Shown here: in pieces, positions 18,863 to 31,647 of the stretch
How the letters are laid out: each line of letters starts with the position of its first letter
Position numbering within the stretch: the stretch's first letter is position 1
Virus record (IMG/VR): IMGVR_UViG_3300028591_000117
Coordinates: 32,001 to 96,000 of that record
DNA: 64,000 nucleotides
Source of the DNA: a virus
Lineage: Duplodnaviria > Caudoviricetes
Direction: 5' to 3' (one strand)
Program-made: the position numbers and the translations under genes
The notes under the pieces: model-generated
Seen by the model: the letters and a program-made list of their open reading frames with translations, nothing else
What the model was told of the DNA's origin: nothing
Databases searched by the model: none

Positions 18863-19234
18863 TTATATAAAGTGCTCTGAAACATTTTTATGTTTATCTA
18901 CTAGTGTTAATAAGTTTTTAATATCTACGTTTAATGTTTCTAAGTTTCCTTCTCCATCATCTATAAAACTTTGAAATCCTTCAAGGTATCTTCCAACTAA
19001 AACCTCAAATACTCCTTCAGAAACATCTTCCATATCAGTAGGAGTATATGTAAAACCATAATTATCTAATAAATTAGATATTCGTTCTAAATCTCTTGAT
19101 AAATTATTTAATACAAATATTCTATCTTTATTATGTGTATCAAAATAATCTTTATATCTATTAACTAGTACTTGTAAAGCATCATCAATCTTTTCATAAA
19201 ATATTTTCATATTTTTAATTTCTTCAAAAATCAT
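18863..19234 (-). CDS. hypothetical protein
   Basis: ORF track. Confidence 0.55.
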   Translation of the reverse strand: MIFEEIKNMKIFYEKIDDALQVLVNRYKDYFDTHNKDRIFVLNNLSRDLERISNLLDNYGFTYTPTDMEDVSEGVFEVLVGRYLEGFQSFIDDGEGNLETLNVDIKNLLTLVDKHKNVSEHFI

Positions 19235-19635
19235 AACTCTATTCTCCTATCTATATAATGTCTTCTTATAAGTAATTTTCCACTACTACTTATATCTTGT
19301 TTATGTTTAGCTTCAAACTCATATAAAGCTTCGCGTATTGCTAACAATTGTTCTTTAGTTGGAGGCTTCTGTTGCCTATTAATTTCTAAAAGTATATTAT
19401 TAATATAGTTATATATTTCAAATTCTCTATCTTCTATTATATGAAGATATGGATGTGATGTATCTTTTACTAATAATGCACCATTTTCAATTGTTTTAGG
19501 TCCACCATCGGACTTTTTAATTATATGATGATAACTTAAATCATTTACAGTTCTAAAAGTATAACCCATAAAATCATAATGTTTTATTCGATAGATTTCA
19601 CGCATATCAGATATTATTTGACTCACGTTCATCAA
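19231..19635 (-). CDS. HNH endonuclease
   Basis: YHHIIKKSDGG..TIENGALL....H..LH. Confidence 0.8.
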   Translation of the reverse strand: MMNVSQIISDMREIYRIKHYDFMGYTFRTVNDLSYHHIIKKSDGGPKTIENGALLVKDTSHPYLHIIEDREFEIYNYINNILLEINRQQKPPTKEQLLAIREALYEFEAKHKQDISSSGKLLIRRHYIDRRIEL

Positions 19636-22448: not shown

Positions 22449-23309
22449 CTATAATAATTTTTCATTTTCTATAGTTAAGACATTCACACGATGGGTTAAA
22501 GGTGTGCAAGTATCTATAAAAATCTTCTTACCATTCTCACTTTTAAGTATCGAATTGGTACCACTAATACTAATATTAAACTTCTCACGTATTCCATCTG
22601 TATGGTAGTGACCAACTATGATTGTTTTTTCTGTATTTTTAATTGGCTTACCATAAAAACTACCATCATCCCAAGTTAGATATTCCCAAGGACTCCAAAA
22701 TTCATAAGGACTATACTCAGGTTTATGCCAATCTTTACAAGTTCCATCAATAGATGCATGTGTAAATATATAGTTCTCAGTCTCATAAAAATAAGGTCTT
22801 TCTTCTAACCATTTAAGTAATTCAGGATAGTTTTTATTTATTTTCTCTCTAGCATATTCTTGAAATATACCAAAGACAATCTCAGTAGGTACTGAAAATG
22901 GGTCTTCGAGTATTGGTTCAACTCTATCACCATAAACTTGTGGAGCTTGTTCTTTAAAGTTAACTAAATAAGTTAAGAAAGTATCCCAACAAAGAGTATC
23001 TTCTAAAAAACTATCTAATGTTTTATTAAATCCATTATGAGCGAAATTAAAACTACAATCTTCTCCATTTAGAAAATCTTGTAGAAAACTCTCATGATTT
23101 CCTCTAATACAAATAGCTTTACCTTCATCAGATAACTTTTTAAGATATTTATAAACTTCTAAAGAATGTAAACCTCTATCAAAGTAATCTCCACAAACTA
23201 TTAATAATGAGTTATTATCATTTTCATTATAACCTGCTTTTTCTAAACTTTCTAAAAACTCTTCATAAAATCCATGTATATCAGATACACAGTATATATT
23301 TTTAATCAT
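22449..23309 (-). CDS. calcineurin-like metallophosphoesterase (Ser/Thr phosphatase family)
   Basis: SDIHG, GDYFDRG, RGNHE, THA, GHYH. Confidence 0.92.
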   Translation of the reverse strand: MIKNIYCVSDIHGFYEEFLESLEKAGYNENDNNSLLIVCGDYFDRGLHSLEVYKYLKKLSDEGKAICIRGNHESFLQDFLNGEDCSFNFAHNGFNKTLDSFLEDTLCWDTFLTYLVNFKEQAPQVYGDRVEPILEDPFSVPTEIVFGIFQEYAREKINKNYPELLKWLEERPYFYETENYIFTHASIDGTCKDWHKPEYSPYEFWSPWEYLTWDDGSFYGKPIKNTEKTIIVGHYHTDGIREKFNISISGTNSILKSENGKKIFIDTCTPLTHRVNVLTIENEKLL

Positions 23310-24628
23310 AGTACTAACCTTTCTAAAAAGTCTTTTCTAATAGTACATTGGTCTGCTGATTTATCAACTCTCCATTGTACTAATCTAGCATGAGCTAGTC
23401 TTAGGTTTTTATCAGACAAATCTTGGCCATCAACTGTTGCTACTTTAGCATATATGTCTGGTCTTAATTGAACTTCACCATTAAAATCTCTAACTGTTAT
23501 TGCTTCTCTAAGTTTATCTGGAAGTCCACCAACAGTACAAATATGATGTATCTTAGGCACTCCATATTCATCTAGAATAACATTATTATTCTCATCTAAT
23601 AAATATATTCCAAAGTTTAAAGAACCTACTAATCCTTCATTTCTTGTTCCTTTCTGTCCTTCATTAAAACCGATAACAAAACAATCAAAAGTATCTCCAT
23701 AGTTTTGTTCAAGAAGTGAACCTGTAACACTTCTTTTAATCTTAACCCATTCTCCAGCTCTTTTACCTTTAATATCATAAGTTGAGTCTAAATCTTTAAC
23801 TACTAAACCTTCACCACCAACTGAAACTATTTGATTATAAAAATCTCTAGTTGATAAACCATTACTATTAGCTACTAACTCAATATCTATCAAATCTTTA
23901 ATATTATTAAATGCTAATTGTAAATATTTTTTTCTCTCTCTTAAAGATAAACTTGTTAAATCTTTATTATCATACATTAAGATATCAAAGGCTATAAGCT
24001 TTATTGGATTAAGTTTTTGAAATTGTTTAGATAACTCATAATCAGCTGATAAAATAGCTGAGACCATATTTAACTGAGTGTCAGCTACAATTTCAGTTGA
24101 ATTATCTTTTATAATTTCTTTATTTTTTAAAACTAACTCACCATCAATAATGAAATTAGGAATATTTAATAGACTAAAAGTATTTATACTATCATATAAC
24201 TTCTGTCCATAATTTATAGGTAAAAAGTCATTTACTGATGTATTTCTTGAATAAGCATCTATACAATTATCTTCTCTAAACCAACAAAGTAATTGTCTAC
24301 TACCATCAATCTTTTCTTCAGCTAACCATTTATCTTGATTATTCCAAATTTCTTCTTGTTCTTCAGCAGACTTATTCTTAATCTGAAGAGCTAACATAGG
24401 TGAGTCAATTTTTAAAACCCACTCAAGTGACTTATGAAATAGTCCTTGTTCTTTATATTTTTCTATAAAATAAGACTGAAGTGCTTGAACATAGTCATCT
24501 TTACTATAGTCCAAATAATGCTCTCCAGTCTCTTTATTCACTCTATTACGTGTAGGAATAGGACTTAAACCGAGTAAATCACATTCTAATTTTAATTCAT
24601 TTAATTTTCTAGTACTTCCTTTAGCCAT
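23306..24628 (-). CDS. ATP-dependent DNA ligase
   Basis: EEKIDG (motif I), IIDGEL, AFDIL, EGLVVK, WVKIK, HAR...WRVDK. Confidence 0.93.
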   Translation of the reverse strand: MAKGSTRKLNELKLECDLLGLSPIPTRNRVNKETGEHYLDYSKDDYVQALQSYFIEKYKEQGLFHKSLEWVLKIDSPMLALQIKNKSAEEQEEIWNNQDKWLAEEKIDGSRQLLCWFREDNCIDAYSRNTSVNDFLPINYGQKLYDSINTFSLLNIPNFIIDGELVLKNKEIIKDNSTEIVADTQLNMVSAILSADYELSKQFQKLNPIKLIAFDILMYDNKDLTSLSLRERKKYLQLAFNNIKDLIDIELVANSNGLSTRDFYNQIVSVGGEGLVVKDLDSTYDIKGKRAGEWVKIKRSVTGSLLEQNYGDTFDCFVIGFNEGQKGTRNEGLVGSLNFGIYLLDENNNVILDEYGVPKIHHICTVGGLPDKLREAITVRDFNGEVQLRPDIYAKVATVDGQDLSDKNLRLAHARLVQWRVDKSADQCTIRKDFLERLVL

Positions 24629-25538: not shown

Positions 25539-26768
25539 TTAATTTAAATATTCTTTTCTTACTAAAGCAACCCATCGACCTGTTGTCTCTGCTTCAAAAT
25601 AAGCATCTTTATCATACTTAGTAATAACTCTATCTAAGTATTCATCAACTATTCTTGTTCCTTCTTCATAAGAAACTTCAGCTAAAAAATAAACTCTTAC
25701 ATAATCATTATTATCTTCATCTTCTTCAAATTCTATACTACAGTAATCTTTTACTTCATCTTCTTCAATATAAAGTACTTTAGATGCTCCTTTAATCATA
25801 GCTTCTTCTAAGTCTTGGTCAAGATGAAGTGTTTTATATAATAAATCAATATTCATATTTTCTGTTAATTTATTTTTATTAACAGCTCTAATATTACCAT
25901 TTTCATTTATTAAAACATAATTTCCTCTAGTATAATAACCATTTTCATTTAACCTAAAACCTTTAAATCCATGATTTCTAGGAACATTGAACATTTCAGT
26001 AAAGTGTTTTTTAGGTTTACTTGGTTTTTGTAAACTTCCAACCTCTTGGTCTTTCTTTCCAGCTATATCTGAACATTGAGTACCTTCACAACCTTCATCT
26101 AAATCTTCATCATAATCTTCTTCATCATCAGAATAATTAACTTCAGCGTTACTAAATATACTAGATAACTCAGAAGCCATTGCAGAAATATTATCAAATG
26201 TTGACGCTAAATCTTCAATAGATGTTCCGATATCTGCATAAGAACCTCTTCGAGCATTCTTAATTTCATAAGCAACACGGTCAACATAGTCAAAGAAATC
26301 TGTAGTTAAATCTTCTACATCTTCACCCCAACCATCTTCAGAGTTACTACTCATAGTAATATCTTGCTCTTTTAATGCAGTCTTATCTCTAAAGTCCTCT
26401 ATTAGAAGTTTATCTCCTTTTCCTCTAGCTATTTGAGTATCACTTTCCATTATTTCTAAACCGTTTAAGTTTATTAGTGGTCTAAAATTATGAGCTTTAG
26501 TTTCAGAGACACACTCCTTCATTAAATTATTACACTCATTAAGATAACTTATATAATCTTTATGAGTATACTTAGACTCATTAATAGACTTAACATTATA
26601 TTTAGTATTTAATGTTAATAAAGCACTACCATAAGCACCTTTAGAAATTAAACTCTCTAATATCTCTCTATCATCTTCAGAAACTGGTTCATATTCAATA
26701 ACAGACTCATTAACTTTAACTTTATTACCATCAAGTTTGAAGTTCTTTATAGGCATTGTTATAAACAT
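25539..26768 (-). CDS. acidic multi-domain putative head polyprotein
   Basis: VNES, INES, LNEC, MKEC, IMES, LDEG and LTEN sites separate the segments. Confidence 0.45.
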   Translation of the reverse strand: MFITMPIKNFKLDGNKVKVNESVIEYEPVSEDDREILESLISKGAYGSALLTLNTKYNVKSINESKYTHKDYISYLNECNNLMKECVSETKAHNFRPLINLNGLEIMESDTQIARGKGDKLLIEDFRDKTALKEQDITMSSNSEDGWGEDVEDLTTDFFDYVDRVAYEIKNARRGSYADIGTSIEDLASTFDNISAMASELSSIFSNAEVNYSDDEEDYDEDLDEGCEGTQCSDIAGKKDQEVGSLQKPSKPKKHFTEMFNVPRNHGFKGFRLNENGYYTRGNYVLINENGNIRAVNKNKLTENMNIDLLYKTLHLDQDLEEAMIKGASKVLYIEEDEVKDYCSIEFEEDEDNNDYVRVYFLAEVSYEEGTRIVDEYLDRVITKYDKDAYFEAETTGRWVALVRKEYLN

Positions 26769-26771
26769 GTA

Positions 26772-26945
26772 CTATTCCTCCTTATCATTTTGAGCTTCTT
26801 GTATCTTTCTGACTAACTCTACTTTAAATTTGTTTGTCTCTAATGTATGACTACAATATGGACAAACAAGTTTATTGTTTATAATCTTTACTTTAGACAG
26901 TGGTATTTCTTCTAAACAATCTTTACAAATATATTTATTTTCCAT
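26772..26945 (-). CDS. small zinc-ribbon protein (57 aa)
   Basis: Manual translation MENKYICKDC...LVCPYCSH...KEE*. Confidence 0.7.
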   Translation of the reverse strand: MENKYICKDCLEEIPLSKVKIINNKLVCPYCSHTLETNKFKVELVRKIQEAQNDKEE

Positions 26946-27000
26946 ATCACTTAGTCTATGAAACTCAGCTCTAAAATAATATATAAAAGACGAACTAATA

Positions 27001-28526
27001 TTATTCGTCTATATTCCAATCATCAAATTTATTAAATACTCCTTGTAGCTCTTCTTCTGTAATTAACTTACCTTTAGTAAATGCCCAAAGTAAAGACCTT
27101 CTTAAAGTACTCATAAACTTCTGTTCATTATCATAAGTAGTATAAGGTAGTGTATTCATCTTACCAAATAAACTTTCAATAAGCTTCATATTCTTCTCCA
27201 TACATAATCTTTTATATGTATCTGTAGTTCCAAATGCTTCAATTATATCTATATATTGTTTACTAAATTCAGTATCTACACGAGTTATTCTACCAATTAT
27301 CTGCATTATCTTAGCTATATCATAAGGTAAATCATAAAAAATAATTGCATTAGCTTTTTGAAGATTTATACTCTCACCACCAGCTGAAGTTATAAGTAAA
27401 GGTTTATCTACTGCTATTATATCTTGAATTCTTTTTCTTTCAGACATTGATACTCCACCTTTAATTATTAATGTATTTGAAACTCCTAAATCTCTTTTAA
27501 AAGCTCTTATTAAATAATCTAGTCTCTCAAGAACTGATACATACTCACAATATATTATAGTTGGTTTATTCTCTCTGATATTTTGTAATAATACTTTTAA
27601 TAATAATTTTTCTTTATTTGAAATTTCTTCTCTATCTATTTCATCAGAAACATTATCTACAACAAATGTTATATCTCTTAGTCGAACTGACCAAAAATCT
27701 TTAGCTTTCTCAGACATTTTACCACCAGAAGCTTTTAGATAATTCTTAGTTTCAGTTTCATTAAGATGAGTTGTATGATAGTTAAACTCTAAATTATACT
27801 CTTTTTGTCTTACTATAATTACTTCATTTAAAATAGATTGTAATCTCTCTATATTTTTATATCCAACTATTTCTTCTATTGTTCTTTGAACTTTCTGTCT
27901 ATTTCTTGTAGTTTGCGTTATTCTTTTTCTATTAATAATTAAATAGTTATATTTAAAATTAGACCACGCTCCTAAAAGACTTGGATTTAATAATGTAATC
28001 ATCCAATACATTCCTTCTATATTATTTTTGCAACTAGTAGCTGTTAAAAAATATAATATACAAAATATCTTTCTTATTTGTATAAATTGTTTATACATAT
28101 TAGACTTAGGATTTTGTAGTCCATTATGACTTTCATCAACAATTCCTAAAAGTTTATGCGTTTTATACAACTCAGCTAAAGTTGGTATTGCTTTATCGAT
28201 GCATGTATTAGATATTAATAAAAATCTTCCATTAGGATTTTTAAATGATTTCTCAGTACTTATCATTGAATAGCTTACATGTAATTTTTCAGTTAACTCT
28301 TTTTCAAAAGACATTAAAGCTTTAGGTGGAGCTATAACTATAGTTATCAAATCTCTATTCTTTAACATGAGTTGAGTTGCTAAAGTAACTGCTGTATAAG
28401 TTTTACCTAAACCAGTTAAGTCTGGCCAGATATAACTGCATAAGGTCTTCTTATTGCAAAGTCTATCATTTCATTTTGTTCTTGTTTTAATGGAAACTCT
28501 TTTGATAGTGTATAATCTGGAACCAT
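27001..28526 (-). CDS. SF2/SNF2-type helicase, frame-interrupted in Walker A (36-aa ORF 28416..28526 plus downstream frame)
   Basis: A strong RBS precedes ATG 28526, giving MVPDY...VISGQT*. The next frame continues TGLGKT...IVDESH...LTAT...GGESINLQ...QIIGRITR. Confidence 0.85.
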
Positions 28527-28546
28527 TTAAGCACCACCTCCTTTAA

Positions 28547-28888
28547 TTAAAATTCTATATCTAATTCTTTTATTACATACTCTGTAATTCTATCTAAGTT
28601 TGGTTCTAATTGATACCAAATATCTATTTTAAATACTTCATCTTTATCTGGTCTATGATGTAAACTAGTCACTAAAACCTCATGTTCAGCTTTAGACCAG
28701 TAATAATACATTAGTATACTTTTAATTCCTTCTTTTAATTTTTCATAATTATCTATTTTATCACGTTTTATTCTTTTAAATAAATCATTTACAAACCACT
28801 CACCTAAAACATTAACTCTTTCTAGCTTATTACTATTGAAATCTTCTCTAAAAGCATACCATTCTAATTTTTTATTCTTTTTCTTCAT
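28547..28888 (-). CDS. conserved phage hypothetical protein
   Basis: YYYWSKAEHEV...KIDIWYQL..N motif. Confidence 0.6.
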   Translation of the reverse strand: MKKKNKKLEWYAFREDFNSNKLERVNVLGEWFVNDLFKRIKRDKIDNYEKLKEGIKSILMYYYWSKAEHEVLVTSLHHRPDKDEVFKIDIWYQLEPNLDRITEYVIKELDIEF

Positions 28889-29450
28889 AATTATCTTCTC
28901 TTTCTTCTATTAATCTATCTAATAAAGTACATGCTTGACTATACTCTCTCATATTAAAACCAGTATATGTATCACATTTAACTAAATAAGGAGTTAAATC
29001 TCTTTTAAAACCTACCATATCAGTGTCATCATCTAAAATAACCATAACAGTTTTATCAATATCATAGTTATTTTCAATCATCCAATTCTCTATCTGAACT
29101 CCTCTAGTTTTAAAATAATTCTTATTAGCTCCATCAATAACTTCTACTCTACTGTCTAAACCACTATTTCTAAGAGCTTTTTCAACATCTTTTAATTTAT
29201 GTCCTATAAGCCATGTAGATGTAATAACTATTTTTAAATTATACTCTAAACAAAGTTTATTTAACCACCTAACTGCAAATTCATTAGATACTCTTTTATC
29301 ATTAGGCCAACATAAATCGAAATAAAAACCATCTTTTTCTACCATTCTTCTACCATCAATTGGTTCTGAATATATCATGTGAGTATTTACAACACCATCA
29401 ATATCTAAAAATAATAATCTATCATAACTTAATCTTATACTAGTTACCAT
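28872..29450 (-). CDS. HAD-superfamily phosphatase (Swiss Army Knife RNA-repair type HAD domain)
   Basis: FLDIDGVVN, IVITSTW, VILDDD. Start MVTS at 29450. Confidence 0.8.
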   Translation of the reverse strand: MVTSIRLSYDRLLFLDIDGVVNTHMIYSEPIDGRRMVEKDGFYFDLCWPNDKRVSNEFAVRWLNKLCLEYNLKIVITSTWLIGHKLKDVEKALRNSGLDSRVEVIDGANKNYFKTRGVQIENWMIENNYDIDKTVMVILDDDTDMVGFKRDLTPYLVKCDTYTGFNMREYSQACTLLDRLIEEREDNYEEKE

Positions 29451-29465
29451 ACTCCACCTCAATAC

Positions 29466-29501
29466 TATTATATGAAAAAAGAGACTCAATTGAGTCTCTT
29501 T
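29466..29501 (-). terminator. terminator of the ncRNA island, fused to a TTCATATAATA promoter
   Basis: aaagagactc-aatt-gagtctcttt hairpin with a U6 tract on the minus strand; motif at 29466-29476. Confidence 0.8.
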
Positions 29502-30355
29502 AAATATATTAACTAGGTAGGAATTATTTATTTACCTACAAGTTTAAGACTTAGCTCTGTTTATTAGTTGTACTCTAATGAGGAAGGATTGATTACCTTC
29601 AAGACTGCTAGCTTTAGACAATGTAATACGGTCAAAATCTTTTTCTAAGATTTCGCGTTCCAATTTACACCTTCTGACACAGATTTGTACTGAGTGATTA
29701 ATTGCCAAACTATTATACACCTTTTTACAGGCTTCAACTGCATCTACTTAATGAAAGCTGTGTATATATGCCTCGAACACGTACATATATCACTATCATC
29801 TAGTCGCAACCATCATTCTAGACTGATTATATAAAATTTCGCTATATAAACTCGTTATTATCATAACTCTAAGTCCATTTCAGAACTGTCTATATACCAC
29901 TTACTCCAAGCAAGAGTATTCGTGCACTACATTTGTAGGAAAGTTGTCAAATCTTTCATTATTAAATATAACCATCTTATTAAACTACTATATTTATTAT
30001 TATCTGGCCAAGATAATAACATTTTATAATATAGATTGGATTGATTACCAATATATCAGTACTCAACTACCTATTTCCATTTAACACGGATTTTAGCAGA
30101 CAACATCTATCAAATTTATAGGAGCATATCTCTCCATCAACCGCGAACATTTCTCGTTCTCTCTACTGTTTAGTCGCAACACCACATGTAGACTAGAATG
30201 CATTCGATAGACTCAACTTACACTAACTAAGAATAACAACAAAACTCCCTCGGCTTTTGACCTGGCTACTTAGCTCATGACGAGTTTTTTAACTCGTGTT
30301 AGTTTCTACTCTTATAACGTCGAAATATTGTTTGAGTTACTAAGTTAATATATTT
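29502..30355 (-). ncRNA. large (~855 nt) highly structured non-coding RNA, ROOL/GOLLD-class candidate
   Basis: No ORF >=60 aa on either strand. Ends pair in a perfect 13-bp helix (30343-30355 with 29502-29514). More than a dozen hairpins whose G-U pairs fit the minus strand; duplicated loop motifs; lies next to a tRNA; followed directly by a terminator. Confidence 0.75.
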
Positions 30356-30365
30356 TCAAAGAACT
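30352..30365 (-). promoter_or_regulatory. rRNA-leader-type boxA antitermination element
   Basis: Minus strand AAGTTCTTTGAAAA, matching the Firmicutes rrn boxA GTTCTTTGAAAA, at the 5' end of the large RNA. Confidence 0.65.
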
Positions 30366-30394
30366 TAGTGTATTTAACACTACTCTAATTAATA

Positions 30395-30561
30395 GCTGAT
30401 AATATACTTAAGATTAAAAATAGTTATATTTGTCTATATCAAGGTACCGTCTTCGATATTCCACAGCAAACTACAGCAAATCTTCTTAATTTTGGTTTAC
30501 TGACTTCATTAAGTAGAGTAACTTAATTGAAAGTCACTCTTTTAACTAGTATACTATCAGC
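30395..30561 (-). ncRNA. 167-nt structured RNA or leader domain
   Basis: GCUGAUAGUAUACU (30548-30561) pairs with AGUAUAUUAUCAGC (30395-30408): 14 bp with one G-U. Internal UGACUU/AAGUCA plus AUUAAGU/ACUUAAU hairpin. Begins just after the promoter motif. Confidence 0.6.
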
Positions 30562-30567
30562 ATATTT

Positions 30568-30578
30568 TATTATATGAA
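30568..30578 (-). promoter_or_regulatory. TTCATATAATA phage promoter driving the ncRNA transcript
   Basis: Exact copy of the recurrent motif, with no RBS or ORF downstream. Confidence 0.65.
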
Positions 30579-30604
30579 GTTTTTTAAACTTCCTATAATT
30601 AAAG

Positions 30605-30681
30605 TGGTAGGCAGAGTAGGACTTGAACCCACGACCAAAGCTGTATAAGAACCTCACTCTAACCAACTGAGTTATCTGCCT
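30605..30681 (-). tRNA. tRNA-Ile, anticodon UAU
   Basis: AGGCAGA/TCTGCCT acceptor stem with ACCA end; ACTC/GAGT D-stem; anticodon loop CT-TAT-AC; GTGGG-TTCAAGT-CCTAC T-arm. Confidence 0.92.
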
Positions 30682-30776
30682 AAAACCGTTGTTTGTTATT
30701 TAGACAGGTCCTACAACGTGAGCTGACCTCAATTAAATTATACCATAAATAATTTAAAATGTTTATACTAAATTAT

Positions 30777-30895
30777 AAAATAATAAAACACTAGCGAGAT
30801 GTAGTTATTTAACTAGTGTTTTATTATTTTGAGAATTTCTCTACATAAGATTTTGAAACCTGTATATAAAACTAAGCACCAAATTTATATACAAA
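30777..30895 (-). ncRNA. candidate small hairpin RNA between tandem extended -10 promoters
   Basis: Perfect 18-bp stem 30777-30794/30813-30830, a second tgtatataaa/tttatataca stem, and ATTTATGGTATAATTTA on both sides. Confidence 0.4.
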
Positions 30896-30927
30896 TAAAT
30901 TATACCATAAATTAGTAAAAAATAAAA

Positions 30928-31647
30928 CTATTTTTCTGAAATAGTCTTATCTTCTTTCATAACAAGTTCTCTAATCTGTTCAAGTTTATCTTCAGGTAAC
31001 ATCATCATGCTATCTAATAGTTTTCTATATTCATTATTTAAACTACCAAACTGACTATTATTTTGAACAGTTCTCATTGAAACATCTAAAATGTTTGTAA
31101 TATCTTTATTTAAATTAGTTAATGTTGATGATAAAGTTTTTAAGTCCATGTCATATAAATTTGAAGGGTCAAATAATCTTTCTTGTACTTGATTTGTATA
31201 AGCAGTTAACATAGGTATTCTAGAAAGTTGCATTAAAGTCATTATAGCTGACATTTCTTTTAGACGACCTTCAGTATCAGACATAAATTTATCTACAAAT
31301 AAAGGTTTTTCACCTTTACCTGCAATATAATTAAATAGGTCTTGTATATCTTCAGGAGTAAGACCTAGTGTAAGTTCATTTCTTTTAACTAGTACTGCAT
31401 CAAGAGGTTTTTCTTCACAAATATTTTCAATATTTTCAGGAATAGTATTAAAATTAATTTCTTGCTCTAAACTATCTTCTAACGTTTTATTTTCTAAAAC
31501 TTTAGCCATAGGAGTATCTTCAAATTTAGTATCTGAAGGAAGTTTAACCCATTGAGCTTCTCCAGTTTCTTCATTACTAATTACTTCTGGATTTTCTTTA
31601 GTCTTAGTCAACATATTCTTTAAATCTTCATCTGTAATTTTCTCCAT
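30928..31647 (-). CDS. hypothetical protein
   Basis: ORF track, strong RBS. Confidence 0.6.
   Translation of the reverse strand: MEKITDEDLKNMLTKTKENPEVISNEETGEAQWVKLPSDTKFEDTPMAKVLENKTLEDSLEQEINFNTIPENIENICEEKPLDAVLVKRNELTLGLTPEDIQDLFNYIAGKGEKPLFVDKFMSDTEGRLKEMSAIMTLMQLSRIPMLTAYTNQVQERLFDPSNLYDMDLKTLSSTLTNLNKDITNILDVSMRTVQNNSQFGSLNNEYRKLLDSMMMLPEDKLEQIRELVMKEDKTISEK

Follow-up and report, generated by a model that had tools for sequence, protein, structure and literature searches.

Organization of the helicase locus

The window analysed here is a 64,000-nt stretch of a 123.5-kb IMG/VR gut phage contig with a GC content of 28%. On its minus strand, in a replication module together with genes for PolA, an ATP-dependent ligase, NrdD/NrdG and a HAD_SAK_2 protein, lies a helicase gene whose listed open reading frame (27001-28368, −) encodes 455 aa and lacks a P-loop. 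Pfam searches matched the helicase to Helicase_C (1.7e-14), ResIII (1.8e-8) and SNF2-rel_dom (1.3e-7), and its PHROG match was PHROG 62, DNA helicase.

Upstream of the listed frame, a Shine-Dalgarno sequence, AAAGGAGGTG (28535-28544, −), was read directly, and AAAGGAGGTGGT is invariant in relatives (alignment A1). It precedes an ATG at 28526-28524 (−) that opens ORF1 (28419-28526, −), the first 36 helicase codons, running M...AVISGQT and contributing the N-terminal part, about half, of the Walker A motif. The last of these codons, ACT for Thr36 (28419-28421, −), is the candidate take-off codon and is followed directly by a TAA stop (28416-28418, −), which would stand in the A site at take-off. 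This stop begins five extra bases, TAACT (28414-28418, −), that are missing from intact alleles (alignments A1 and A3), the window being exactly 5 nt longer here than its intact relatives. The last three of the five bases form a second ACT (28414-28416, −), the candidate landing codon, so that the layout is that of a stop-hop, ACT-TA-ACT, with the stop overlapping the landing codon and a hop of 5 nt. Decoding would resume at GGT (28411-28413, −), the codon for the first Gly of GLGKT, with which ORF2 begins (27001-28413, −; 470 codons and a stop, covering GLGKT, a DESH motif and Helicase_C).

The original prediction had described a strong ribosome-binding site and an ATG at 28526 opening a frame that ends SGQT-stop, and two matched ACT codons 5 nt apart, the second in the frame of the 455-aa ORF; reading of the minus strand reproduced this layout, and the coordinates were borne out. 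When the frames are joined after the first ACT, 36 + 470 codons give the 506-aa protein that had been proposed, with an exact SGQT-GLGKT Walker A motif. ORF1 is 100% identical to residues 1-36 of P0001, an intact homologue of 507 aa, and the ORF2 part is 90% identical to its residues 36-506. ORF2 forms one continuous match to its end, in agreement with the earlier view that the rest of the gene is intact. By these matches, the protein is identified as a SNF2/ResIII/Helicase_C DNA helicase whose Walker A motif would be whole only after a hop.

The ORF2 frame is open upstream to 28470, with no ATG, GTG or TTG before 28368. The ATG at 28368 has no Shine-Dalgarno motif upstream, as had been noted for it, and a start there would miss the P-loop. 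Because the ORF2 frame holds no start codon upstream of Walker A, any internally started product would lack the P-loop. A helicase made in two pieces by an internal start or by termination-reinitiation was rejected, since the window has no in-frame start upstream of GLGKT; a TTG overlapping the stop was found in the relatives L020/L082 only.

Genomic context of the helicase gene

When the 123.5-kb record was scanned for ORFs preceded by long start-less leaders, no further split-gene candidate came up. An alternative genetic code was rejected, since large genes are intact under table 11; ORFs of the record end in TAA (58), TAG (30) or TGA (8). The sole tRNA of the record is a tRNA-Ile(UAU) (30605-30681, −), for which reason a phage-encoded tRNA driving the hop was also rejected, and an Rfam search of 26500-31500 matched this tRNA alone. 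Beside it, just upstream of the helicase operon, lies an ORF-free stretch of ~860 nt (29502-30365, −).

Two genes upstream of the helicase is the gene for the protein with a HAD_SAK_2 ('Swiss Army Knife RNA repair') domain (28872-29489, −), which is kept at this place in close relatives with upstream genes called. Downstream of the helicase lie the ATP-dependent ligase, which has a weaker RNA-ligase match (23306-24628, −), and a metallophosphatase. These three proteins may act together in the repair of RNA or DNA.

Pfam searches found no endonuclease within ~7 kb downstream or ~8 kb upstream of the helicase. The only HNH match in the whole record is a free-standing ORF of 134 aa just downstream of nrdG/nrdD (19231-19635, −), with no HNH_3 and no GIY-YIG match. 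An HNH gene lies 2.5 kb upstream of the intact helicase in G002, and none was found in G001, in which the helicase is interrupted. A mobile cassette of the gene 39/mobA/gene 60 type is not supported, as no homing endonuclease adjoins the helicase.

Short inserts recur at the same site in relatives

A megablast search of INPHARED and a first protein scan of IMG/VR found no close relative, and relatives were drawn from a protein index, assemblies and JGI contigs. The protein index yielded 139 homologues, and the N-termini of the closest 70 form three classes. Intact proteins of ~500-508 aa, such as P0001, read ...AVISGQTGLGKT...; a second class of ~478-488 aa has a false N-terminus that is an out-of-frame reading of the same codons; and the third, of ~442-459 aa, starts downstream of Walker A. 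When 65 close homologue clusters (at least 440 aa) were typed, 38 were intact and 21 carried a 10-nt insert, the remainder being other interrupted forms. DNA was fetched for representatives of the insert types, and every DNA-resolved interruption in the close family falls in the 27 nt coding GQ[T/A]G[L/I]GKTY. Roughly half of the close relatives are interrupted within this same 27-nt Walker A stretch. A query with the 41-aa N-terminal ORF retrieved six small ORFs, all ending in GQT or GQTGL, from the protein index, in which small ORFs are poorly represented.

The family includes the phage contigs L075 and L076 (116-125 kb), which come from GTDB metagenome-assembled genomes labelled 'Bacilli bacterium' and 'Erysipelotrichaceae' from yak/rumen samples; this binning gives a weak hint of the host group. 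In L027 and L063 (~32% identical), an in-frame insertion of 72 codons (1341-1558) follows soon after the Walker A helix.

Comparison of orthologues revealed what a hop had led us to expect, namely inserts of variable length with matched codons. A private mutation, which had been raised as an alternative, is contradicted by L074, which is ~70% identical in protein and carries the same 5 nt as the window (ACT, TAACT, then GGT). A second 5-nt form, in which ACT is followed by TGACA, occurs in lineages of ~41% and ~59% identity (L020/L061 and L082), and a 7-nt insert, TAGTACA after ACT, in L034. The 10-nt inserts (L001-4, L005-6, L007 and L083) start with TAG, TAA or TGA, end in GCT or ACA and follow ACT, or ACC in L083. 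All of these inserts stand after the Thr codon. Others stand after different residues of the motif: L008/9 have an in-frame insert of 6 nt after Leu (CTT-TAA-CTC), and L010-15 have 11 nt after Ile, where ATT is followed by CGG... and the insert ends in ATA. The two longest types, both in frame, follow Ala. In L079, 27 nt after GCT begin with a TAG that opens a 5-bp GAAA-tetraloop hairpin, and the last triplet is GTT; in L080/81, 30 nt after GCC hold a 4-bp GAAA-tetraloop hairpin and two TAA, followed by GCA. The 11-, 27- and 30-nt types are GC-rich inserts in an AT-rich genome.

Weaker cases are a 1-nt insert in L040, which creates ACT-CGG, and, in L043 and L062, a TA expansion of 2 nt that follows GKT closely. 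The L040 helicase (~40% identical) also contains an intein right after its DEAH motif (...DEAH|C ... VHN|C..., within 420-1500); a DUF559 (Vsr-like) endonuclease domain lies inside the intein, which is itself frame-shifted near 1390-1411, so that an intein and the 1-nt Walker A junction occur in one gene. Among close kin, no intein and no fused long form of the helicase was found.

The inserts share a design of take-off, A-site and landing codons

In the window, take-off and landing use identical codons (ACT...ACT), and in relatives the pairs are ACT...ACA or GCT, ACC...ACA, CTT...CTC, ATT...ATA and GCC...GCA. The triplet immediately 5' of the resume codon specifies the same amino acid as the take-off codon (Thr, Leu, Ile or Ala) or is G.U-compatible with the same tRNA, the exception being L079, in which GUU against GCU is only near-cognate. 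In the short inserts, the landing triplet is the first cognate triplet downstream of take-off; the earlier cognate triplets of the 27- and 30-nt inserts sit within the hairpin stem.

A stop directly follows the take-off codon in all main types except those of 11 nt (CGG) and 30 nt (CAG). In relatives with 5-, 6-, 7-, 10- and 27-nt inserts it may be TAA, TAG or TGA, always remaining a stop, and in L008 the matched codons flank it as CTT-TAA-CTC, giving a 6-nt in-frame hop. The CGG of the 11-nt type is the rarest codon of the phage, at 1 in 32,818 codons, and the CAG of the 30-nt type (L080) is an ordinary codon. Within the 10-nt class, each of the three stops (TAA/TAG/TGA) is paired with both kinds of landing triplet (GCN/ACN), six pairings in all, and a sense codon never occurs at the stop position. 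Where take-off follows Thr, the codon is ACT in 9 of 10 distinct interrupted alleles and ACC in the other, and intact alleles mostly have ACA. By rough estimates from base composition, a phased synonymous triplet at four independent junctions would arise by chance with a probability of ~1e-5, and a stop directly after take-off at three junctions with one of ~3e-4.

These features suggest that a single re-pairing rule explains the seven main insert lengths; the 1-nt (L040) and 2-nt (L043/L062) cases obey it less well.

RNA structure and nascent chain at the gap

The original prediction had placed the site in an imperfect hairpin with arms CAGTTA/TAACTG, and this hairpin does exist in the window (28413-28438, −; arms at 28433-28438 and 28413-28418). 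It is not conserved: it is absent from L074, even though that allele has the same 5 nt, and from L008 and L034. For the window, RNAfold favours a related fold in which ACU-UAA forms a hexaloop (-13.6 kcal/mol, z = -2.0); 6 of 200 shuffled sequences folded at least as stably. Over 13 junctions no common fold was found (z from -2.3 to +1.9), and the short insert types share no RNA structure or Shine-Dalgarno-like element. Pairing of ACU with the following GGU was discarded as a signal, being inherent to Thr-Gly codons.

Among the other types, L079 and L080 have a GAAA-tetraloop hairpin at take-off, and L020 has a 7-bp hairpin. A search for the 17-nt hairpin motif of L079/L080 as a mobile cassette gave 19 IMG/VR matches, about the number that chance predicts, all in unrelated contexts. 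Both 5-nt inserts, those of the window and of L020, complete local inverted repeats. Thus, the hairpin is probably not a required signal, and may instead record how the insert arose, by template switching. The nascent chain of 36 aa, in which a signal priming take-off might lie, is conserved, yet the same residues make up the enzyme's conserved N-terminus, and the two constraints are inseparable.

Both halves of the interrupted gene appear to be under purifying selection

By the Nei-Gojobori method on ~465 ORF2 codons, dN/dS was 0.06-0.10 among interrupted alleles and 0.05-0.08 among intact ones. Five distinct alleles with the 11-nt insert, from a clade whose sampled members all carry it, differ with dN = 0 and dS of up to 0.17. 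For L005 (10 nt) and L008 (6 nt), which belong to a well-supported clade of 16 sequences without an intact member, dN/dS was 0.026. In ORF1, the window and L001 differ by 15 synonymous and 1 nonsynonymous changes. Conservation also places the frame change at ACT/GGT, frame A being kept through Thr36 and frame B from Gly37 on. Taken together, the substitution patterns indicate purifying selection on both gene halves (dN/dS 0.03-0.10), of a strength as in intact alleles.

None of the interrupted alleles of the close family has a second lesion, ORF2 being a single uninterrupted match to its end, and a pseudogene is not supported, as neither relaxed selection nor extra lesions were found in them. 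On the 127-kb contig L052, two more frameshifts disrupt the last third of the helicase (2440-2740), without a stop or matched codons; in contrast to the Walker A inserts, this copy is probably an assembly error or in decay.

Intact and interrupted alleles are interspersed in phylogeny

On a quick IQ-TREE phylogeny of 79 core sequences, intact and interrupted states are interspersed, so that no fewer than 17 changes of state are needed, and some identical protein cores come in both states. Between L007 and its intact twin L072 there are 84 substitutions in 3.9 kb (2%) and just one indel, the 10-nt insert itself, around which the substitutions are slightly denser. Most simply, alleles are exchanged or regenerated fast, by recombination between co-infecting phages.

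Such fast switching weakens the argument from selection without removing it, since the clades in which all members are interrupted are still strongly constrained. Likewise, the identical cores found in both states mean that part of the measured selection may date from intact ancestors.

Translational bypass as the probable route to the full-length helicase

Based on these comparisons, we consider it probable that the helicase is made by translational bypass through re-pairing of the peptidyl-tRNA. A ribosome would translate ORF1 as far as Thr36 (ACU), where the UAA in the A site would be decoded slowly. The peptidyl-tRNA-Thr would then release ACU, the mRNA would slip by 5 nt, and the same tRNA-Thr would re-pair with the second ACU. 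Decoding would restart at GGU, yielding the P-loop GQTGLGKT within one protein of 506 aa. The hop may be programmed, in the sense of efficient or regulatory, or may do no more than correct an insert that the phage tolerates. The 5 nt would be one allele in a polymorphic set of Walker A mini-inserts of a phage helicase family, whose intact and interrupted alleles are swapped quickly between lineages, probably by recombination. The comparative data fit the translational hop of the original prediction in the recurrence of the inserts, their matched flanks and the apparent selection on both halves; the hop itself, its efficiency and the cause of the inserts' persistence are what we infer. Stop-hop efficiency in E. 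coli is low, and a replication helicase might need more product than such an efficiency gives, which is a point against bypass.

The main competing explanation, which we regard as unlikely, is that the interrupted alleles are nulls: the helicase would be dispensable in some hosts or its loss favoured, for instance in escaping a host defence that senses it, and the Walker A codons would be a mutational or recombinational hot spot, with the stop and the repeated codon as by-products of processes such as quasi-palindrome template switching. The very fast switching of state, even on identical cores, would suit nulls, as would the single indel between L007 and L072 at only 2% divergence, the inverted repeats completed by the inserts of the window and L020, and the putative nature of the full-length product. 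However, null mutations should scatter over a 1.5-kb gene, whereas the DNA-resolved interruptions of the close family all fall in one 27-nt stretch; they should also be accompanied by second lesions or a relaxed dN/dS, and neither is seen, all-interrupted clades included. Nor would mutation alone be expected to produce codon-phased synonymous flanks at four junctions, or a stop that changes its identity yet remains a stop, and no second Helicase_C gene occurs in the 123.5-kb record, in which no other SF2 helicase gene was found. Sequencing or assembly error is barely credible. The record is a metagenome assembly, and nothing further points to error; against it stand the same 5 nt in an independent assembly of the divergent L074, the recurrence of other insert types across many samples and assemblers, and a site that is not a homopolymer. 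Both alternatives attached to the original prediction, an assembly error and a pseudogenising private insertion, are thus contradicted by L074, by the recurrence and by the signs of selection.

Two other explanations would, like bypass, deliver a full-length protein. Ordinary frameshifting, +1 for the 7- and 10-nt inserts and +2 or -1 for those of 5 and 11 nt, would leave 1-3 extra residues before GLGKT. A stop that follows the shift site is well known to stimulate +1 shifting, as in prfB, motif I of SNF2 proteins tolerates residues other than Gly upstream of GxGKT, and the +1 frame is indeed open through the insert in L001, L005 and L007, where it would read [R/K/E]-L-[A/T] before GLGKT. But L083 has a +1-frame stop within its insert, so that only a 10-nt hop yields the full product, and the in-frame inserts of 6, 27 and 30 nt, which contain stops, are beyond rescue by a frameshift. 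In addition, the first 'inserted' residue would vary among R, K and E, following only the identity of the stop, and in the window there is no slippery site and a -1 product would swap conserved ORF1 residues for unconserved ones; we therefore judge frameshifting to be quite improbable. Removal of the extra bases before translation, by a micro-intron-like cutting and rejoining of RNA or by polymerase slippage, perhaps with the help of the nearby RNA-repair-type enzymes, seems very improbable. The HAD_SAK_2 'RNA repair' gene, conserved two genes upstream in the close relatives examined there, the ligase and metallophosphatase of the same module and the stable GNRA hairpin of the 27- and 30-nt inserts would be in its favour. 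Excision from RNA or DNA, however, needs neither a stop after the upstream codon nor a phased synonymous codon, both being specific to tRNA re-pairing, and the insert ends have no common sequence. We know of no such splicing in bacteria or phages.

Returning to bypass, a more far-reaching version of it is possible, and we advance it only tentatively. Phages of gut and rumen Bacilli-type hosts may keep a balanced polymorphism of P-loop bypass mini-elements, which host ribosomes would cross with an efficiency sufficient for the phage to depend on them, and which would be selected for a purpose. The elements might then form a graded series, from stop-hops of 5-6 nt to gaps of 27-30 nt with a gene-60-like hairpin, and conceivable purposes would be dosing of the helicase, evasion of a defence or nuclease of the host directed at the conserved DNA or at the protein, or drive. 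On this reading, phages would use short translational bypass regularly, as an evolvable means of gene expression, and it would not be an oddity peculiar to T4.

Implications for recoding and annotation

If the bypass is real, the alleles of this helicase family form a natural series within a single protein context, with inserts of 5, 6, 7, 10, 11, 27 and 30 nt and intact controls diverged by 2%. Such a series could be used to test what a hop requires, relating the distance, the stop or hungry codon in the A site and the pairing at landing to efficiency, and it may show how long bypass cassettes evolve from short ones. For annotation, gene callers split or truncate genes of this kind; the ORF that they gave here, of 455 aa, has no P-loop, and the one that they gave in relatives, of 480 aa, has a false N-terminus.

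Comparison with known recoding systems

Programmed bypassing long rested on T4 gene 60 with its homologues and on one yeast mitochondrion. According to the review by Atkins et al. (2016, PMC5009743), shorter counterparts have been 'long presumed', the only known stop-hops are those of synthetic constructs, and no natural in-frame stop-hop is known. In the literature searched, including that review, we found no natural case of such a short bypass described, and none in a helicase.

Features reported for homologues of gene 60 are an A-site codon that is either a stop or hungry, codons matched by wobble, and an absence of premature landing triplets (bioRxiv 10.1101/2022.08.31.505936). Like T4 gene 60 and its myovirus topoisomerase homologues, the helicase sites combine a stop or a very rare, hungry A-site codon with a gap whose scanned part is free of premature landing triplets, and L079 and L080 further resemble gene 60 in a tetraloop hairpin from the take-off codon and an AU-rich 3' part of the gap. 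Different from gene 60, the sites lie in the P-loop of a SNF2-like helicase and are not homologous in sequence to the cassette of gene 60, their gaps measure 5-30 nt instead of 50 nt, and the short forms have no common structure. There is also no split gene and no MobA-type homing endonuclease adjoining the helicase, and intact alleles are found side by side with interrupted ones, both being frequent.

Synthetic stop-hops of the 1980s in E. coli, as outlined in PMC5009743 (its ref. 54), have the same order of codon, stop and matched codon. The CTT-TAA-CTC of L008 would be a textbook stop-hop, with 9 nt for one residue, and the 5-nt hop of the window its out-of-frame form. Whereas the synthetic sites were engineered, those of the helicase are natural, recurrent and apparently under selection.

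In mitochondria of Magnusiomyces capitatus, 'byp' inserts measure 27-55 nt (cited in bioRxiv 10.1101/2022.08.31.505936 and PMC5009743). They are numerous, short, located in essential genes and corrected at translation, as the helicase inserts would be. In both cases an unused or slow A-site codon follows take-off, some landing codons match at only two positions out of three, and some inserts, here those of 11, 27 and 30 nt, have a high GC content within an AT-rich genome. Byp elements occur in many genes of one organelle genome and rely on a special ribosome. The helicase inserts, by contrast, are confined to one motif of one gene, as judged from the scan of the record, and occur in phages of Bacilli-type hosts.

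With prfB +1 frameshifting, the helicase sites share a slow stop in the A site that would trigger re-pairing of the P-site tRNA. They differ in that re-pairing would be to a non-overlapping codon 5-30 nt away, in that the +1 frame is closed in L083, and in that the in-frame insert types lie beyond frameshift rescue. Our analysis suggests that the site is most likely a rare natural short version of the T4 gene 60 bypass.
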